64,000 nt of DNA from Candidatus Micrarchaeota archaeon (GTDB lineage Archaea; Micrarchaeota; Micrarchaeia; Norongarragalinales; Norongarragalinaceae). This document shows positions 20,190 through 27,778 of this stretch, one piece after another. The notes under the pieces were generated by a model. The model did no database searches, had not been told where the DNA came from, and saw only the letters and a program-made list of their open reading frames with translations. Within the stretch, counting starts at the first letter, position 1. Each line of letters starts with the position of its first letter. The position numbers and the translations under genes are program-made. Where the stretch lies: the NCBI GenBank assembly GCA_016207165.1, contig JACQQD010000011.1, forward strand, positions 6,515 to 70,514, in the 5' to 3' direction.

Positions 20190-21316
20190 ACGCCATCCAA
20201 AAAATTGCGGACCGATACGCGGGCTTCGTCTCCTCCAAACCCTGGACCGTGCTGGCCATTGCCCTACTCTTCTTCGTCCTCGCCGGCCTATCGGCCAGCC
20301 ACCTACAATTTTCCACCTTCCAAAACAAAGACATTTTGCCCGACGGCCAGCCGGCGGTGGAAGCGTTGCAAGTCATCAACGACGAGTTCGGCGGCGCCGA
20401 ATTTGCCACCCTCGTCGTCCAAGTCGACCCCCAGAGCGCCAATTCCACGGAGCCCCGCGACGCCCGCGACCCTCAAGTCATGAAGTACGTTCACGCCCTC
20501 GGAGCGTTCGCGAAAACCGATGACTGCGTCCAACGCGTGGACTCCGCCACCACCGCGTACCAAGACCGGTTCGGCGGTTTGCCCAAGACCACGCAAGACG
20601 TCATTGACGCCCAAAAAATGGTGCCGGGCATCAACGGCTATCTCAACCCCTCCTACAGTTTAGCCACCATCCGCATTCAAACCTTGGAGAGTTGCGAATC
20701 CGGGGAAGTCTATTCCACCATGACCACCCTCTTAAAAGAAAATCCGGCTCCGCCTGGGGTGACGGCCCACGTGGCCGGCGCATCCCTGGCCTTTGCCTCC
20801 ATTGAGCCGTTGATTTCAAAAGACAGCAACTTTACTTCCATCATATCCATGGCCGCCATCATCGCCATTCTCGTTTTGATTTTCGGCTCCCTGCGCCGCG
20901 GCCTCATTCCCTTGACCACCATCGTCTTCGGCTTGGTCTGGGGCATGGGATTCGTCGCCTTCATCGGACTGAAAATCACGCCCCTGACAGCCGGAGTCAT
21001 GTCCATGATCATGGGAATCGGAATCGATTTCGGCATCCAAGTCATCACGCGCTTCAAATACGAATTCAACGCCGCCAACCCCGAAGCCGCCATGCACACC
21101 ACATTATCGCACGTCCTGATTCCCATGACAACCACCACCCTGGCGGCCGCCATCGGCTTTGCCGCCATGAATTTGGGAACGCTTACCATGATGGGCCAAC
21201 TCGGCCAAATGATGGCCTACGGCGTGACCGCCTCGTTCTTGGCCGCCATCACCGCGGTTCCCGCGTTAACGATCATCGAAGCACGGATTCGTGCCAAGCA
21301 ACCCGCATGGAGGTAA
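20186..21316 (+). CDS. RND/MMPL-superfamily exporter, C-terminal half
   Basis: Same architecture as the preceding gene. 4-bp overlap with it. Confidence 0.5.
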   Translation: MNAIQKIADRYAGFVSSKPWTVLAIALLFFVLAGLSASHLQFSTFQNKDILPDGQPAVEALQVINDEFGGAEFATLVVQVDPQSANSTEPRDARDPQVMKYVHALGAFAKTDDCVQRVDSATTAYQDRFGGLPKTTQDVIDAQKMVPGINGYLNPSYSLATIRIQTLESCESGEVYSTMTTLLKENPAPPGVTAHVAGASLAFASIEPLISKDSNFTSIISMAAIIAILVLIFGSLRRGLIPLTTIVFGLVWGMGFVAFIGLKITPLTAGVMSMIMGIGIDFGIQVITRFKYEFNAANPEAAMHTTLSHVLIPMTTTTLAAAIGFAAMNLGTLTMMGQLGQMMAYGVTASFLAAITAVPALTIIEARIRAKQPAWR

Positions 21317-22701
21317 AAAAAATGAAAAACTGGATTACAGTGATTGGATTTTTGGCCTTGCTCTCCGTAAGCCTCTCCGCCAACGTGCGCCCCATCTTCC
21401 TGAACCAAGACCCCGACCCAGCTGCCCCGGGACACTACGTGGAACTCCGCTTCAAAGTCGAGAAAACTACGACCGCCGAAATCCGGGACATGCAATTCCG
21501 ATTGGACGTGGTTTACCCCTTCTCCTTTGACGGCTCCGACACGCCCACCCGATCTTTCGGAAGCTTCACCGGCGCCACCATCGGCTCCGACAACCAATTC
21601 ATCTTGAAGTACAAAGTCTTCGTGGCTCCCGGCGCGCAAACCGACAAAGCCGAAGTCAAGCTCTACTACCGCGACAGCGCGCAGGACTGGACGGAATTCA
21701 AGTTCAACATCGCGGTGGACGACAGCCAACCCAACCTGGTGTTAGGATCCGTGAAAACAACGCCTGACGCACTCTTTGGCGACTTTGACGGCGCCAAAGT
21801 CAGCATCGCCTTAACCAACATCGGCGACAAAGACGCCCAAAACGTGCAAGCCACACTGAGACTGCCTGAAGGCTTTGAGCCGTCTTTTGGCTATTCCGAC
21901 CAAAGCGTGTACGGCACCATCACCCAAGGATCCAGCCAATCCGCCGACTTTTACGTGGACTTGAATGAATCCGTGGCCAAAGGATCCTACCCTGCACAAC
22001 TATTCATCCAATTCAAGCACGTCAACGACCCGCAAACCGACTACCGAAACGCCTCCATTCCCGTCAACCTGCAAGTCAAAGGCCGGCCGCAATTCAAAGT
22101 CGTCTCCGTCAAAACCACTCCCGACGCGTTGCACCCCGGCACGAAAGCCACCGTCAACGTCGTGATAGAAAACGTTGGAAGCGACGAAGGAAAATCCACT
22201 TCGCTTAAAGCCTTCAAGGAATCCACGCAACCCTTTGAATTCGACGACAAATCCGACTTCATCGGCAATTTGAAACCCGGAGAAAAAGGCGAAGCCGTTC
22301 TTTCCGTCAACGTGGCCCAAAACGCGGACCCAAAAATCTACCGACTCAACGTGGAAGCCCGATCCATCTACAACGACCAAGTCGTTTTGAGCACCGACAC
22401 CATCCAATTGGACGTGCAACCCGGCGGAGCAACCGGATTTGAGGGCAAAGACATTCTTCTGGTCCTGCTCTTGGCGGCCACCGCCTTTCTTGCCTACCGC
22501 CAATTCGGGCCCAAAACCAAGGGCGGACAAATCGAAAGCAAAGATGAAAAGACTGGAAAAGACGGAGGAGACCACTCCGGGCACGGCGGACATAGGACCA
22601 GCGGCCATGAAGAAAGCACTTCAACGGGTTCCAAAACCGAGGCCGAAGAAACCACCGAACCCAAACGCAAGGTCCACGTCGTGTTGGGGAAGAAAAAATA
22701 G
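21307..22701 (+). CDS. COG1361-like cell-surface (S-layer domain) protein with C-terminal TM
   Basis: Signal peptide, repeated beta-rich CARDB-like domains and a C-terminal TM with a basic tail. The archaeal COG1361/RND exporter gene pairing is known. Confidence 0.45.
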   Translation: MEVKKMKNWITVIGFLALLSVSLSANVRPIFLNQDPDPAAPGHYVELRFKVEKTTTAEIRDMQFRLDVVYPFSFDGSDTPTRSFGSFTGATIGSDNQFILKYKVFVAPGAQTDKAEVKLYYRDSAQDWTEFKFNIAVDDSQPNLVLGSVKTTPDALFGDFDGAKVSIALTNIGDKDAQNVQATLRLPEGFEPSFGYSDQSVYGTITQGSSQSADFYVDLNESVAKGSYPAQLFIQFKHVNDPQTDYRNASIPVNLQVKGRPQFKVVSVKTTPDALHPGTKATVNVVIENVGSDEGKSTSLKAFKESTQPFEFDDKSDFIGNLKPGEKGEAVLSVNVAQNADPKIYRLNVEARSIYNDQVVLSTDTIQLDVQPGGATGFEGKDILLVLLLAATAFLAYRQFGPKTKGGQIESKDEKTGKDGGDHSGHGGHRTSGHEESTSTGSKTEAEETTEPKRKVHVVLGKKK

Positions 22702-22806: not shown

Positions 22807-23304
22807 TCAAATTACTTTTACTTCATTTCCTTTAGGTTTACGATTGATTAACTCTAGATGAATTGCGGTAACACCTTGAATTGCTTGAAGACGATGGGCA
22901 TCCACGTTCTTGACAAGTTCGTCAGTGACTTCCAATCGCTCGTCGTGATAAACAATACGTTTTTTCGGTCGTAAAATAATCTGCCCTATCCGGGGGTCTT
23001 CAATTGCTGCTTCTTCGTGGGCAACGCGATTTCCAATGTTCTTTACGTAGTCAATCGCCGTCAAAGTTCGCTTGCGGAGTTCTTCGTCGATTTTTTCCTT
23101 TTTACAAATTTTACAAAAAACCTGTTTTTTTGCCTCAAACGTTAAACGTTCGGATAACACGAAATCTCTTAAGGTAAAGGTCTTTTCATCTTGAGGCCAT
23201 ACAAAGTAGTTTGCCAAAAAAAACTCCAAGCCTTGTTCCAAACCAGCCCTCATCCGCAGTATTTCACCGCACCTGCGATGAAAAAGAGTAACGTTTTCTG
23301 ACAT
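22807..23304 (-). CDS. hypothetical protein (cassette A of TA/defence island)
   Basis: Start trimmed to a Met that sits ~25 bp downstream of a TATAAATT box. Lower GC than the flanks. No confident domain; 'NIGNRVAHEE' is only weakly HEPN-like. Confidence 0.35.
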   Translation of the reverse strand: MSENVTLFHRRCGEILRMRAGLEQGLEFFLANYFVWPQDEKTFTLRDFVLSERLTFEAKKQVFCKICKKEKIDEELRKRTLTAIDYVKNIGNRVAHEEAAIEDPRIGQIILRPKKRIVYHDERLEVTDELVKNVDAHRLQAIQGVTAIHLELINRKPKGNEVKVI

Positions 23305-23327
23305 GGACAAAAAAATAGGGAGGGTGT

Positions 23328-23335
23328 AATTTATA
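23328..23335 (-). promoter_or_regulatory. TATA-box-like element upstream of cassette A start
   Basis: Minus-strand 'GCTATAAATTAC' ~25 bp upstream of the ATG at 23304. Confidence 0.35.
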
Positions 23336-23447
23336 GCTAAACTGGGTGACCGTGAGAAAGGTAATTTGGGAACACGCTCACGCGTACTATCTCCGGGTGC
23401 GTTCCAATCCAGTGCCACGAGTCAAGCGTTTAAAAACGTGGGGAGGG

Positions 23448-23488: not shown

Positions 23489-23845
23489 TTATTTTTTCTT
23501 GTAGCCGAAGCGTTTGTCGTAGGCGGGGTGCGGTTCGATGTTCAAGACGAACGAAATGATTTCGATTTCCGAGTCGCCGGCTTTCAGCGTGTAAAGCATT
23601 CGCCAAAATTGGGGCAATTCCACGCGGAACAAGTTCTTTACGTCATAGCGTTGGACGTATTCCTTCGGGATTTTCTCCTTGGAAATCGGGTCGCCGTAAT
23701 GGATGTTGGCCTTGATCAATTCGACTTTCTTGTTTACGGCGTTCAGGATGCTGCGCTCGAGTTTCGACGAGGGCGCGCGCTCGTTGAGGTACCGGTAGAC
23801 GTCCTCGGCTTCCGGCGAAAGGATGACGCGGACGGCCTTGTTCAA
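23489..23845 (-). CDS. RelE/ParE-family toxin
   Basis: 'NLFRVELPQFWRMLYTLKAGDSEIEIISFVLNIEPHPAYDKRFGY' fits the RelE/ParE C-terminal consensus. 118 aa. Confidence 0.55.
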   Translation of the reverse strand: MNKAVRVILSPEAEDVYRYLNERAPSSKLERSILNAVNKKVELIKANIHYGDPISKEKIPKEYVQRYDVKNLFRVELPQFWRMLYTLKAGDSEIEIISFVLNIEPHPAYDKRFGYKKK

Positions 23846-24114
23846 AGTTCAAGACCCCGGGCAATCGCCTTTTTCAATTCCGGGTCGTCGTTTGCAATCC
23901 AGGAAATGCCTTTCAAGGAAACGGCGATCTTGTTGCTGGCCTCCAAGTACTCCAAAATCGCCTTCAGCGTGTAATGGTTGACTTGACGCGGCAACAACCG
24001 CTTCAACTCCGCCACGGTGACCACGCTTTCTTTCATGTCCGCCAACACGTTCTCGACCATGATGACGGTCTTGAGGTTCGGGGCACGCCCCACGTTTTTG
24101 TACATAAAAATCAC
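23842..24114 (-). CDS. antitoxin of RelE/ParE pair
   Basis: 90 aa. 4-bp overlap with the toxin. Preceded by a TAGTTAC/GTAACTA inverted-repeat operator. Confidence 0.45.
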   Translation of the reverse strand: MIFMYKNVGRAPNLKTVIMVENVLADMKESVVTVAELKRLLPRQVNHYTLKAILEYLEASNKIAVSLKGISWIANDDPELKKAIARGLEL

Positions 24115-24280: not shown

Positions 24281-24748
24281 TTAGGAAAACTTGTTTTTCA
24301 GGAAGCCGATGGCTGCGCGGACTTGGTCTTCGGTGAACTTGGGTTTCTTGAGTTTGAGTATGGACACCAGTTTCTTTGGGTCGAATTGGCAGGAAAACTC
24401 GTCGTTGACGTAAAGCAGGCTAGCGTAAAGCTCCAAGGCGTCGGGGTCTTCTAGACTGTTGCCGAAAAAGGATTTGAAGGCGTTAAGTTTGTCGGCGTCC
24501 ATGGGTTGGGACATTGTTTCGTGTTGGTAATGCGTGTAATAGTCAAAGTGCAAGTCGTAGGAGAAGGGGCCCGCGTAATGCCATACGAAAGAATAACCGG
24601 TGTCAACGCCCCATTTTTCAAGCAAGTAGGCGATTTTCTGTAAGTGCTTGCGGCTGACGTAGTCCAAAAAGGAAAGACGGCGGCCCAACAAGGATTGGAC
24701 GTCGGCGTGCAGCCGGTCCAACCGCTCTGGCACGTTCACGAAAGCCAT
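24281..24748 (-). CDS. Panacea-domain (DUF4065/SocA-like) protein, putative antitoxin
   Basis: 'KHLQKIAYLLEKWGVDTGYSFVWHYAGPFSYDL' matches the Panacea consensus (KLqKLlY...W.yGP). Confidence 0.45.
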   Translation of the reverse strand: MAFVNVPERLDRLHADVQSLLGRRLSFLDYVSRKHLQKIAYLLEKWGVDTGYSFVWHYAGPFSYDLHFDYYTHYQHETMSQPMDADKLNAFKSFFGNSLEDPDALELYASLLYVNDEFSCQFDPKKLVSILKLKKPKFTEDQVRAAIGFLKNKFS

Positions 24749-25524
24749 TACGAATCCCTCTTTTTTAACCCGTTTGGCGGGCTTAATTCGTCCAGCAACG
24801 CCTTGATTTTCCCGGGAAGTTCGAAAATGATTTCGGTTTCAACGTCCGCGTAGTTGGGTGTCGAGGAAGTCAGTATCAAGGCGTCGACGCACGAGTTGTA
24901 GACGGTGACCAAGTGCGCCATTTCGGAAATGGCTTGCACCAGCGGCATGTCTTTTTCCTCGAAGGCTTCCAGATTGTTCAACAGCGCGTGGCAAGCCACA
25001 CCCGTTAACCGAATGCGTCCAACGAGTTTCTTGTTCTTGGGGTCGTGCTGGAGGATTTGGAGGTTGTTTGAGAGTTCCGTCTGGAAAGCACGGATGAGGG
25101 CGCGTTTTTTTCGTTGGTCTCTTTCGGCAAATTTCTTGAGGTTCTTTCCAATGCGTGCAAACTGTCTTCCGGCGCCTTTCAGCGCCCAAACCGTTTCCGT
25201 GGCGTCATCTTCCCGAACGACTTCGATGCGACGCTGGGAATTAAAGGACAACTCCCGATCTTCTAGGACCGGTTGCTTGACAACCACCGACTTCAAATCG
25301 ACAAGCTCTGGCAAAAGTTCTCGGATGGCATCCAGAAACGCTTGATTGCGGTCCAAGTCGCCTTCCAAAAGAAGTTCCACGTGGCCGTCGTGCTTGAGGT
25401 TGCGGACCTGGCCCTTGACGGAAAAATCGCCGTTCTCGGCCAGCTCCTGAATAGATTCACGCAAGTTCACGCCCTGGACGTGTTCGGGCGTGTGCCCTTG
25501 GAAAACGATTTTGAGTATCTTCAT
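24748..25524 (-). CDS. acylphosphatase-like domain fused to an unknown C-terminal domain (putative toxin/effector)
   Basis: N-terminus 'LKIVFQGHTPEHVQGVNLRESIQELAENGDFSVKGQVRNLKHDGHVELLLEGD' aligns with the acylphosphatase VQGV...GxVRNxxDGSVE...EGD fold. Start set to 'MKILKIV', which sits ~29 bp downstream of a TTTTATA box. 1-bp overlap with the Panacea gene. Confidence 0.5.
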   Translation of the reverse strand: MKILKIVFQGHTPEHVQGVNLRESIQELAENGDFSVKGQVRNLKHDGHVELLLEGDLDRNQAFLDAIRELLPELVDLKSVVVKQPVLEDRELSFNSQRRIEVVREDDATETVWALKGAGRQFARIGKNLKKFAERDQRKKRALIRAFQTELSNNLQILQHDPKNKKLVGRIRLTGVACHALLNNLEAFEEKDMPLVQAISEMAHLVTVYNSCVDALILTSSTPNYADVETEIIFELPGKIKALLDELSPPNGLKKRDS

Positions 25525-25549
25525 ATCCAAGAACCCGTCCGTTGATGAG

Positions 25550-25557
25550 TATAAAAG
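25550..25557 (-). promoter_or_regulatory. TATA box (minus-strand CTTTTATAC) for the cassette C operon
   Basis: ~29 bp upstream of the ATG at 25524 and ~11 nt downstream of motif copy 3 in the gene orientation. Confidence 0.4.
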
Positions 25558-25568
25558 CATTCAGACAC

Positions 25569-25613: not shown

Positions 25614-25877
25614 CTAAAAGTAACTCGAATACCATTTTTCGTATTGTTTGTGGTCGCCGACGAAGTAAAAGCGGACTTGATTTGATTCGTCAAAGACGCG
25701 GTACGTGATGCGGTGTTGGCCGGCTTCGTCCACGAAAAACCGAGTGTTCTTTCCCATGTGGCGCTTCTTGGGATACTCCAAGATTTTCCGGATTTTTTTG
25801 ACGACGCGTTCCTTGGTGACGGAATCCAAGGCCTCAAAGTATTTCGGCCAATCCTCGTCGAAGCTTTCGACAAACAT
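25614..25877 (-). CDS. RelE/ParE-family toxin
   Basis: 88 aa from an internal Met. 'HRITYRVFDESNQVRFYFVGDHKQY' is the RelE/ParE C-terminal signature. Confidence 0.55.
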   Translation of the reverse strand: MFVESFDEDWPKYFEALDSVTKERVVKKIRKILEYPKKRHMGKNTRFFVDEAGQHRITYRVFDESNQVRFYFVGDHKQYEKWYSSYF

Positions 25878-25893
25878 GGTTTTGGACAGGTGA

Positions 25894-26166
25894 TTACTTG
25901 AGGTGCGTGGCGTAAGAGCCCAGGGCTTGGTCCGCTGCCAAGAGTTTCCGCTTGCCGGAGGCAATATCACGGTCGATGCGGTCCAGTTTCGCGTTGACCA
26001 ACGCCGTTTCGTCCAAAAAGCGCTTTTCGCCAAACGAGATGATGGCAAGTCGAATGGCTTCGGACTGCGAATTGGCAAAGCCTTTGGCCACCATGTCTTT
26101 CACGATGTCCTTGGTTTTGCCACGCAGAATCACGTTCATGTCGCTCAATACAATTACCTCCACCAT
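25894..26166 (-). CDS. ribbon-helix-helix-like antitoxin
   Basis: 90 aa. 'SEAIRLAI' RHH-like helix. 17 bp upstream of the toxin. Confidence 0.5.
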   Translation of the reverse strand: MVEVIVLSDMNVILRGKTKDIVKDMVAKGFANSQSEAIRLAIISFGEKRFLDETALVNAKLDRIDRDIASGKRKLLAADQALGSYATHLK

Positions 26167-26358: not shown

Positions 26359-27669
26359 TTAGAAGCGGTTTCTGGGCTTGAATCGAGAGGTTCCGGATGG
26401 GCGACGGCTGAAGTGTTGACGTGGACCGTGCCCGCCAAACCCTCCGCGGTGGCCGCCCCGTCCACCAAAGCCTCCCCGTCCACGGCCCCGTCCTCTTGGA
26501 GGCGGTCTTGCCGCGGCTCCGGTCGCGTTTTTCGCGGTTTCAGAATGCAAGGCGTGGTCCATGACTTGGATTTGTTCGCCGATGAGGCGTTGGATGTCGT
26601 TGAGGTAAGAGCGCTCGTCAGCCGCGCAGAAGGAATAAGCGGTGCCGTCGGCTCCGGCTCGTGCCGTTCTTCCGATCCGGTGGACATAAATCTCGGGTTC
26701 GTTGGGCAAGTCGTAGTTGATGACGTGGGAAATGTCGTCGATGTCGATGCCTCTTGCCGCAATGTCGGTGGCGACGAGGACTTGGACGCGGTTTTTCTTG
26801 AAGTTGTCCAGCGCCTTGATGCGTTGGTTCTGGCTTTTGTTGCCGTGGATGGCATCCGCCCGAATCCCGTGGTGGGTGAGCATGTAGGCCACCTTGTTGG
26901 CCTTGTGCTTCATCAGCGTGAAGACCAAGACGCGCGTCAAGTGGCTTTGCTTGAGTAGGGAGACCAATAACTCGTCTTTTTTGTCGGAGTCGACGAAGAA
27001 GAGGCGTTGCTCGATTTTTTCCACGGTTTTGCATTCCGGCGTGACTTCCACGCGCACCGGATCCTTCAACAAAGAGTTGGCCAGTTCCCCGATTTGGGGG
27101 GACATGGTGGCGGAAAAGAAAAGCGAATGGCGTTTGGGGGGAAGCAAAGCGATGATTTTTCGGACGTCGCGGTAAAAACCCATGTCCAGCATCCGGTCGG
27201 CCTCATCCAAGACGAAGTATTGCACGCCGTCCAATCGGATGTGGCGTTGTTGGATCAAGTCCAACAACCGGCCCGGAGTCGCGGTGAGGAAATCGACGCC
27301 GTGGTACAAGGCGCGCACTTGCGGGCCTTGGCCCACGCCGCCAAACACGACGGCGCGCCGCACGCGAAGGAATTGGGCGTAGGCGGCAATGCTTTCGTCG
27401 ATTTGGAGAGCCAACTCGCGGGTGGGCGTCAAAATCAGGACTTTCGGGGTTTTTGAAACCAGGGACGTGGGGCGATTAGTCAAGTGCTGGAGGATGGGCA
27501 ACGTAAAGGCGGCGGTCTTGCCGGTGCCGGTTTGAGCGATGCCCAACAAATCGCGGCCGTCAAGTAAAGGCGGAATGGCTTTGGCTTGGATGGGAGTGGG
27601 TGTGACGTAGCCTTGGTGCTTTAAGGCGCGAAGGATGGGTTCGATGAGGTGGAGTTGGGCAAACGGCAT
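26359..27669 (-). CDS. DEAD-box ATP-dependent RNA helicase with C-terminal RGG/Gly-Arg-rich tail
   Basis: Q-motif, 'AQTGTGKT', 'DEAD', 'SAT', 'HRIGRTARAG'. Start trimmed to 'MPFAQL'. Confidence 0.85.
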   Translation of the reverse strand: MPFAQLHLIEPILRALKHQGYVTPTPIQAKAIPPLLDGRDLLGIAQTGTGKTAAFTLPILQHLTNRPTSLVSKTPKVLILTPTRELALQIDESIAAYAQFLRVRRAVVFGGVGQGPQVRALYHGVDFLTATPGRLLDLIQQRHIRLDGVQYFVLDEADRMLDMGFYRDVRKIIALLPPKRHSLFFSATMSPQIGELANSLLKDPVRVEVTPECKTVEKIEQRLFFVDSDKKDELLVSLLKQSHLTRVLVFTLMKHKANKVAYMLTHHGIRADAIHGNKSQNQRIKALDNFKKNRVQVLVATDIAARGIDIDDISHVINYDLPNEPEIYVHRIGRTARAGADGTAYSFCAADERSYLNDIQRLIGEQIQVMDHALHSETAKNATGAAARPPPRGRGRGRGGFGGRGGHRGGFGGHGPRQHFSRRPSGTSRFKPRNRF

Positions 27670-27778
27670 GGTTTGGTTCCTGGTAAAGATTAAAGGTAGT
27701 TGCAATAAAAGTGGACGGCAGGGTTTATTTAGGTCCCAGGTTGGGCAGGCACCCGTTAACGGGTCCTCTCAATAAGAA

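Follow-up and report, generated by a model that had tools for sequence, protein, structure and literature searches.

A DPANN archaeal gene pair that joins an acylphosphatase-fold fusion protein to a DarG-tail/Panacea superfamily protein: a candidate effector-neutraliser module

Introduction

Panacea-type neutralisers already pair with dozens of unrelated partners. In PanA-PanT (PanAT) systems, a small helical neutraliser is encoded beside, and often overlaps, a partner that varies between lineages, and the genes lie in toxin-first order with a short overlap. The part of the PanAT dataset consulted here (Kurata et al. 2022, PMC8832971) includes HD-domain (YdhJ-type) proteins as predicted Panacea partners, in toxin-first order and with a -4 overlap. 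Here we describe a gene pair with this general layout, termed A-B, that is located in a 64,000-nucleotide stretch of DNA from Candidatus Micrarchaeota archaeon (contig JACQQD010000011.1), hereafter called the window. Gene A encodes an acylphosphatase-fold fusion protein, and gene B encodes a small all-helical protein related to the C-terminal domain of DarG. The reading that we favour, with moderate confidence, is that A and B together make up a self-contained effector-neutraliser module of the type II toxin-antitoxin/PanAT kind, patchily distributed among the small, symbiotic DPANN archaea, in which A would hydrolyse a phosphorylated metabolite when B is lost.

Two other described systems bear on gene B. 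A 2026 paper (PMC13621843) gives DUF4065 proteins and the inhibitor domain at the C-terminus of DarG as homologues, and this DarG domain directly binds and inhibits its toxin (Deep et al. 2023, as cited in PMC13621843). The Panacea domain of SocA is the one after which Pfam PF13274 is named, and SocA is encoded beside its toxin (PMC8832971). The SocA-SocB system (type VI, Caulobacter) therefore resembles A-B in that a Panacea-type protein is encoded next to a toxin, but SocA acts as a ClpXP proteolytic adaptor and not as an inhibitor, the role proposed below for B, and no SocB-like partner is present at the A-B locus. To our knowledge, DPANN archaea lack ClpXP.

The nearest described counterparts of gene A are acylphosphatases and the N-terminal domain of HypF, which share with A the VQGVxxR phosphate loop and the VRN sequence, with the catalytic Arg and Asn kept. 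In HypF, as in A, the acylphosphatase-like domain forms the N-terminal head of a larger protein. In contrast, a canonical acylphosphatase is a single domain of ~90 amino acids with no partner gene, whereas A has 4-5 extra residues before the QGV loop, continues beyond strand beta-5 with a unique, invariant motif, and ends in a bundle of four helices that spans ~150 amino acids.

Organisation of the A-B gene pair

The open reading frame (ORF) listing of the window contains two minus-strand ORFs, at 24748-25560 and 24281-24748, that correspond to A and B. These are the ORFs that the first-pass annotation, made from the sequence before our analysis, had presented as a 1-bp-overlapping pair, and the peptide strings it quoted are present in their translations (KHLQKIAYLLEKWG...WHYAGPFSYDL in B and VQGVNLRES...GQVRNLKHDGHVELLLEGD in A). 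The features of the pair, in window coordinates, are as follows.

24748-25524, minus strand: gene A, 258 amino acids, acylphosphatase-like fusion protein, candidate effector/toxin; stop codon at 24748-24750; product equal to the deposited protein P0001
25216-25524, minus strand: A residues 1-103, acylphosphatase-fold domain in which the phosphate-loop remnant VQGVNLR and the VRN sequence are kept
25168-25215, minus strand: A residues 104-119, family-specific motif REDDATETVWALKGAG, located where strand beta-5 passes into a 53-residue helix
24751-25167, minus strand: A residues 120-258, variable four-helix bundle made up of the remainder of the long helix and three more helices; putative docking or oligomerisation part
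24281-24748, minus strand: gene B, 155 amino acids, all-helical, candidate neutraliser; homologue of the DarG C-terminal domain, Panacea superfamily
24748, minus strand: one-base overlap of the A stop and the B start (TAATG), read from the sequence
25550-25556, minus strand: TATA-like element TTTTATA, read from the sequence, with 25 nucleotides between it and the A ATG

The true start of A is most likely the ATG at 25524, giving a protein of 258 amino acids, and not the ORF boundary at 25560. This assignment is based on the matching start of P0001 (a deposited Candidatus Micrarchaeota archaeon protein, annotated 'acylphosphatase', that is identical to the product of gene A), on the aligned N-terminus of the 46%-identical protein P0002, and on the presence of TTTTATA 25 nucleotides upstream. 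The start of the 155-amino-acid B protein, with its MA... N-terminus, is kept in the homologue P0004.

The TAA stop codon of A (24750-24748) and the ATG start codon of B (24748-24746) have one base in common, which suggests that translation of the two genes is coupled. The position of TTTTATA, which had been proposed as a TATA box belonging to the pair, fits the promoter of a leaderless transcript, such spacing being expected between an archaeal TATA box and a leaderless transcript. When the 60 nucleotides upstream of A-family genes were inspected (loci L013-L055), a TATA-like heptamer (TTTAWA, TTTTAAA or TTTATAT) was found to begin 27-32 nucleotides upstream of the predicted A ATG in about half of the related loci. 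Because this element recurs, the A-B unit seems to carry its own promoter, and leaderless transcripts are suggested.

Gene A encodes an acylphosphatase-fold fusion protein

The assignment of A as an acylphosphatase-fold fusion stands on several lines of evidence. Residues 15-84 match the Pfam Acylphosphatase model (PF00708) with 30.7 bits, compared with a gathering cut-off of 22.5, and the protein has the beta-alpha-beta-beta-alpha-beta fold and both catalytic residues of that family. However, the best score of A against the NCBIfam acylphosphatase equivalogs is 26.7 bits, far short of their cut-offs of 86-131, and therefore A is not an ordinary housekeeping acylphosphatase. Its 258 amino acids, with the added motif and four-helix bundle, also set it apart from the single-domain housekeeping enzyme of ~90 amino acids. 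No match for A was found in PADLOC, and PHROGs gave only weak, uninformative matches.

An exhaustive HMMER search of 1.84 billion representatives (E<=1e-3) yielded 140 A-family proteins, most of them 225-285 amino acids long and aligned from the N-terminus to at least position 135-190. One match, P0042 (541 amino acids, with six stretches matching the A profile), was set aside: it consists of approximately seven identical 70-residue repeats and looks like a translated tandem DNA repeat, not a relative. In an alignment of 68 A relatives, R22 and N42 are invariant, and G18 and G38 are nearly so. When aligned to Pyrococcus horikoshii acylphosphatase, R22 and N42 fall in the VQGVGFR and VRN motifs, which hold the catalytic Arg and Asn of this enzyme family.

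The most conserved block of the A family lies outside of the acylphosphatase part. It is an almost invariant motif with the consensus REDDLTEMVWALQGAG, and the mean frequency of the top residue is 0.75 across residues 100-121 versus 0.25 in the 100 C-terminal residues that make up the bundle. The first-pass annotation had described the ~190 amino acids after the acylphosphatase domain as lacking any recognisable motif. No known enzyme domain is present there, but this region contains the most conserved element of the family.

Structure prediction, which the same annotation had proposed for both proteins, gave for A an AlphaFold model with a predicted local distance difference test (pLDDT) score of 86.8 and a predicted template modelling (pTM) score of 0.70. 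The model shows a beta-alpha-beta-beta-alpha-beta head, a fifth strand at residues 100-103, a 53-residue helix beginning at the motif, and then three further helices. The C-terminal part of A is a generic, variable four-helix bundle with no known enzyme domain: it structurally resembles generic four-helix bundles only, and the A-family profile, searched against the PDB, found no sequence relatives for this half except designed bundles. A HEPN toxin was also considered for the C-terminal half, but the R-x6-H string in question (RLTGVACH) is kept neither in P0002 nor in the family, so that the conserved Rx4-6H signature is absent, and A gave no match to a HEPN domain.

Because R22 and N42 are invariant while the bundle varies, A looks like an active enzyme. 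If the head does chemistry and the bundle carries partner specificity, the expected outcome would be the conservation pattern seen in A, namely an invariant head and motif joined to a fast-evolving bundle.

A and B form a conserved unit in DPANN archaea

To our scan of 185,579 species genomes, in which DPANN species number in the low thousands, 14 A-family loci responded. The pattern used for the scan matches 59 of 85 A-family representatives (~70% sensitivity), and the count obtained at this sensitivity therefore indicates a patchy, accessory distribution. All 14 loci are in DPANN archaea (Aenigmatarchaeota, Micrarchaeota, Iainarchaeum and Nanohalarchaeota) or in unclassified archaeal metagenome-assembled genomes. 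A metagenome scan added 29 loci, of which 22 have B directly downstream of A, five end at or just after A, and two carry a truncated A.

Linkage of the two genes is obligate. A B-family ORF directly follows A on the same strand in all 13 genome loci with downstream sequence, and the total for loci with a full-length A and room for a second gene is 37 of 37 (13 from genomes, 22 from metagenomes, L001 and the window). These 37 loci represent 33 distinct pairs at 90% identity, and L005 adds a partial A-B pair. In 14 related loci, the genes are separated by -4 to +68 bp. The two proteins also diverge in step from locus to locus, with a Mantel r of 0.76 between their pairwise distances (reached in 0 of 5000 permutations), a sign of co-inheritance. 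Recurrence in 37 of 37 testable loci refutes the idea that two unrelated small ORFs were brought together by chance adjacency or an annotation artefact. That idea, to which we give almost no credence, could appeal only to the general frequency of spurious ORFs in six-frame listings, whereas both proteins have deposited counterparts, homologues and confident structure models.

The surroundings of the pair vary and, taken with the patchy distribution, give a pattern like that of a mobile unit. Among 15 loci, no gene family other than A and B is common to more than three within 5 kb on each side. Therefore, neither part of an outcome that would have spoken for a housekeeping role, a C-terminal half formed by a known non-toxic enzyme domain and a conserved housekeeping synteny, was found: the C-terminal half is a generic bundle, and synteny is not conserved. 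Two small co-directional, overlapping genes that form a conserved unit in variable contexts have the layout of a type II toxin-antitoxin locus.

The two metagenome loci with a truncated A (L040, 166-627, and L054, 3-194) represent the same element. It encodes a 153-amino-acid protein in which the head and the motif, here DDLQEMVWALQGA, are kept, but the bundle is missing and no B gene is present downstream. The joint loss of bundle and B agrees with the bundle carrying partner specificity, but this is a single case. Separately, a RelE/ParE-like ORF is located at 1155-1466 of L054, ~1 kb from the truncated A.

This variant also bears on the proposal that the harmful part of A is its helical C-terminal half, which would bind or sequester a cellular target, while the head would be a phosphate-ligand sensor that gates the bundle, as BLUF-fold sensors do through a long helix. 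That head and motif were retained when both bundle and B were lost is consistent with such an arrangement, although the observation comes from one element. In Foldseek searches, the head and long helix of A align with BLUF photoactivated cyclases, in which the signal of a domain with this fold is passed on along a long helix, and the 53-residue helix of A follows directly upon the invariant junction motif. However, the bundle is the least conserved part of A, whereas the effector part would not usually be so variable if its cellular target were fixed. The bundle also resembles generic four-helix bundles only. In addition, the invariant Arg and Asn of the head point to chemistry over ligand sensing alone. 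We consider this proposal unlikely.

Gene B belongs to the DarG-tail/Panacea superfamily

Gene B had been identified as a Panacea-domain protein from its sequence motif. This motif is present, but the assignment did not survive profile searching in that form. The Pfam Panacea model (PF13274, DUF4065) has a gathering score of 25.7 bits, a value reached by no member of the B family, and it gives no match to window B at E<1. The best score in the family is that of P0011 (22.2 bits, E 2.9e-4, model positions 1-103 of 113), and P0012-P0014 score 12.7-15.2 bits. Bacterial members align, below threshold, to positions 1-104 of the 113-position model.

What window B matches instead is the DarG C-terminal domain. 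The PADLOC DarG profile (E 6.3e-6) and the NCBIfam DarG profile (E 0.003) both recognise it, and both matches are confined to the start of that domain (profile positions 167-225). Ten further B relatives came from a profile search and 13 more from the DPANN genome loci. A 25-sequence B-family profile searched against the PDB matched 7YK3 chain B, the C-terminal domain of M. tuberculosis DarG in complex with DarT (E 3.7e-7, profile positions 29-158 of 165). The structure model of B (pLDDT 88.9, pTM 0.86) found chains D and B of the same entry as its only meaningful Foldseek matches (probability 1.0), with a modest query TM-score of 0.53. More distant, bacterial members extend the match: P0011 and P0012 cover the whole DarG C-terminal domain in the PADLOC profile (positions 167-327 of 329; E 7.5e-13 and 1e-17, respectively), and a tblastn search with P0012 matched plasmid genes annotated 'macro domain-containing protein', in each case in their C-terminal portion.

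Given the profile, fold and tblastn matches to the DarG C-terminal domain, the sub-threshold Panacea alignments, and the reported homology between DUF4065 proteins and the DarG inhibitor domain (PMC13621843), B is a stand-alone homologue of the DarG C-terminal domain within the DarG-tail/Panacea superfamily, outside of the Pfam family boundary. The earlier assignment therefore holds for the superfamily, where profile and fold similarity to a characterised member is significant, and not for the Pfam family.

Likeness to DarG is restricted to this domain, which is both the best profile match and the best structural match of B. Unlike DarG, B has no macrodomain (no Pfam match was found) and hence lacks ADP-ribose-removing activity, and its partner is not the ADP-ribosyltransferase DarT, since A matches acylphosphatase only. 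With the Panacea proteins of PanAT systems, the B family shares the motif pattern QK..YLLQ ... W..GPYS and the alignment over nearly the whole PF13274 model. The differences are that window B is missed by that model, that the A-B family is confined to DPANN archaea among the recovered loci, and that the partner is of the acylphosphatase type. The first-pass annotation knew of no described toxin with an acylphosphatase-like domain, and in agreement with this, the part of the PanAT dataset covered here (Kurata et al. 2022, PMC8832971) contains no 'Acylphosphatase' partner.

Bacterial relatives of B adjoin HD-domain proteins

Distant bacterial and metagenomic relatives of B (P0006-P0012) directly adjoin HD-domain proteins, located upstream or downstream of them. 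The pairs are as follows.

L002, 2823-4528: HD-B pair
L004, 2674-4525: HD-B pair
L006, 1-2324: HD-B pair
L007, 24-1924: HD-B pair, order reversed
L008, 2703-4534: HD-B pair
L010, 533-2449: HD-B pair, order reversed

The usual order is HD and then B. These HD proteins carry the HD...DxGH.PFSH...DxDRMDYLLRD pattern of deoxynucleoside triphosphate (dNTP) hydrolases of the SAMHD1/dGTPase type, and they match the PADLOC dGTPase profile with E-values from 1e-6 to 4e-11. The partner class is the same as that of the predicted HD (YdhJ-type) PanT proteins in the PanAT dataset. A domain shared by A and the bacterial HD partners for docking with B was sought with hhalign, which found none (probability 0.1). 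At L008, the HD-B pair adjoins a GmrSD restriction gene and an S24 peptidase gene. HD-B pairs may be dNTPase-type defence or toxin-antitoxin modules under DarG-tail-like control.

A proposed effector-neutraliser mechanism

We propose that A is the effector, with an acylphosphatase-type head that would bind and hydrolyse phosphate ligands and that would be rigidly coupled, through the helix start formed by the family motif, to the variable four-helix bundle. B would be translated by coupling from the same leaderless transcript and would keep A inactive by direct binding, with the fast-evolving bundle or the motif helix as the likeliest contact site. Loss or displacement of B, whether by proteolysis, stress or virus infection, would free A to hydrolyse an essential phosphorylated metabolite (1,3-bisphosphoglycerate, acetyl phosphate, carbamoyl phosphate or possibly nucleotides), and growth would stop. 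Both partner classes of the B family are phosphohydrolases, which suggests the depletion of phosphorylated metabolites as a possible effector principle. The more specific proposal that the acylphosphatase-like head is the warhead of a new toxin class, hydrolysing acyl phosphates or nucleotides once freed of B, is one that we put forward only tentatively.

An effector-neutraliser function would account for coupled genes that seem to have their own promoter, for obligate linkage in unrelated contexts, for the patchy distribution, for a neutraliser homologous to a toxin-binding domain, and for partner switching. The location of the window pair, between a RelE/ParE-like pair and other small cassettes, was also counted in favour of a toxin-antitoxin function.

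Several observations weigh against this function. In other genomes, the pair adjoins assorted housekeeping genes (EF-1alpha, SerRS, ribosomal protein L1, tRNase Z, RNase R, DNA ligase and GyrB) or genes for unknown proteins, and not defence or toxin-antitoxin islands. The earlier placement of the pair in a 'cassette island' is reasonable for the window genome but does not extend to the other genomes. No A gene was found in the viral contigs scanned or in the plasmids searched by tblastn. A is slightly acidic and B is approximately neutral, so that the charge pattern of a basic toxin with an acidic antitoxin is not seen. Persistence of the truncated A without B argues that either this copy is dead or the head alone is harmless, and the lack of a PF13274 match to window B belongs on the same side. 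Moreover, we know of no acylphosphatase that acts as a toxin.

Most of these points would suit a non-toxic enzyme-regulator pair with no part in addiction or defence. A would then be a specialised DPANN acylphosphatase-type enzyme or a phospho-ligand sensor, and B would be its obligate structural, chaperone or regulatory subunit, with the DarG-tail/Panacea fold serving merely as a protein-binding module. Housekeeping surroundings in most other genomes, the missing charge asymmetry, the lack of viral or mobile-element association in the viral contig and plasmid searches, and the absence of acylphosphatases from the known toxins are all compatible with such a pair. So are the strong constraint on the catalytic residues and the low identity (~20-30%) among members from several DPANN phyla, as would be seen in a pair inherited from long ago. 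However, 14 matches in 185,579 species genomes, even with a pattern of ~70% sensitivity, is a very patchy distribution for such a pair, and synteny is not conserved beyond the two genes. To date, the known examples of the B fold come from antitoxins (the C-terminal domain of DarG, as well as PanA and SocA), relatives of B switch to a completely different partner enzyme, and the window pair lies inside a run of toxin-antitoxin-like cassettes. Thus, we regard an enzyme-regulator pair as a serious but less likely rival, and an effector-neutraliser module remains the reading that we favour.

Neighbouring genes in the window

The A-B pair lies within a run of small minus-strand genes, between a 464-amino-acid gene on the plus strand and a helicase-like gene. 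The surrounding features are as follows.

25894-26166, minus strand: ribbon-helix-helix (RHH)/ParD-like ORF, probable antitoxin, upstream of the RelE/ParE-like ORF (TIGR02606, E 0.02)
~25614-25880, minus strand: RelE/ParE-like ORF (Pfam ParE_toxin, E 0.0012; PHROG RelE-like, E 4.7e-4; E. coli RelE, E 0.02, full length)
23842-24114 and 23489-23845, minus strand: 4-bp-overlapping gene pair, the first of 90 amino acids with faint winged-helix matches (SelB-wing_2, E 0.055)
22807-23418, minus strand: 203-amino-acid ORF that closes the run of small cassette genes; faint similarity to DUF4145 (E 0.12) around IGNRVAHEE
26359-27705, minus strand: 448-amino-acid ORF with DEAD-box helicase motifs (AQTGTGKT, DEAD, SAT and HRIGRTAR in the translation) and an Arg/Gly-rich C-terminal tail, RGRGRGRGGFGGRGGHRGGFGG
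21307-22701, plus strand: 464-amino-acid protein with a signal/anchor-like N-terminal hydrophobic segment, beta-rich repeats, a C-terminal hydrophobic stretch and a charged His/Gly/Ser-rich tail

All of the ParD-like and RelE/ParE-like matches are below the curated cut-offs. The RelE/ParE-like ORF, listed with 154 amino acids, probably starts later, at MFVESFDE. For the 118-amino-acid protein encoded at 23489-23845, no match was found in Pfam, NCBIfam, PADLOC, PHROGs or the PDB; in its layout, the gene pair to which it belongs looks like another toxin-antitoxin cassette. The 464-amino-acid protein is probably a surface protein, judging from its sequence features.

Implications

One more partner for a Panacea-type neutraliser is no conceptual surprise. 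What is new is the nature of the partner, which has an acylphosphatase fold, has kept the catalytic residues and bears a distinctive, invariant motif, along with a DPANN-wide family of at least 33 distinct A-B pairs. Also new is a branch of the neutraliser superfamily that is nearer to the DarG tail and is missed by the Pfam model. Because the superfamily extends well beyond the reach of that model, surveys built on it would have missed the B family.

The setting is one in which accessory and defence genes are almost entirely uncharacterised, namely the DPANN archaea, and the system is experimentally tractable, with two small genes, clear catalytic residues and an enzyme type for which phosphatase assays are simple. 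Should the pair prove non-toxic, it would be a regulated acylphosphatase-type enzyme specific to DPANN archaea, a result of narrower interest. If the proposed effector function is correct, the acylphosphatase, a fold not known to have been tied to toxicity before, would join the effectors of toxin-antitoxin and abortive-infection systems. If, more specifically, the head is the warhead that hydrolyses acyl phosphates or nucleotides, freed A would cause the collapse of ATP from substrate-level production in fermentative, genome-reduced DPANN archaea. Moreover, A-B and the bacterial HD/dNTPase-B pairs would together constitute a group of metabolite-depleting phosphohydrolase effectors held in check by one neutraliser family.

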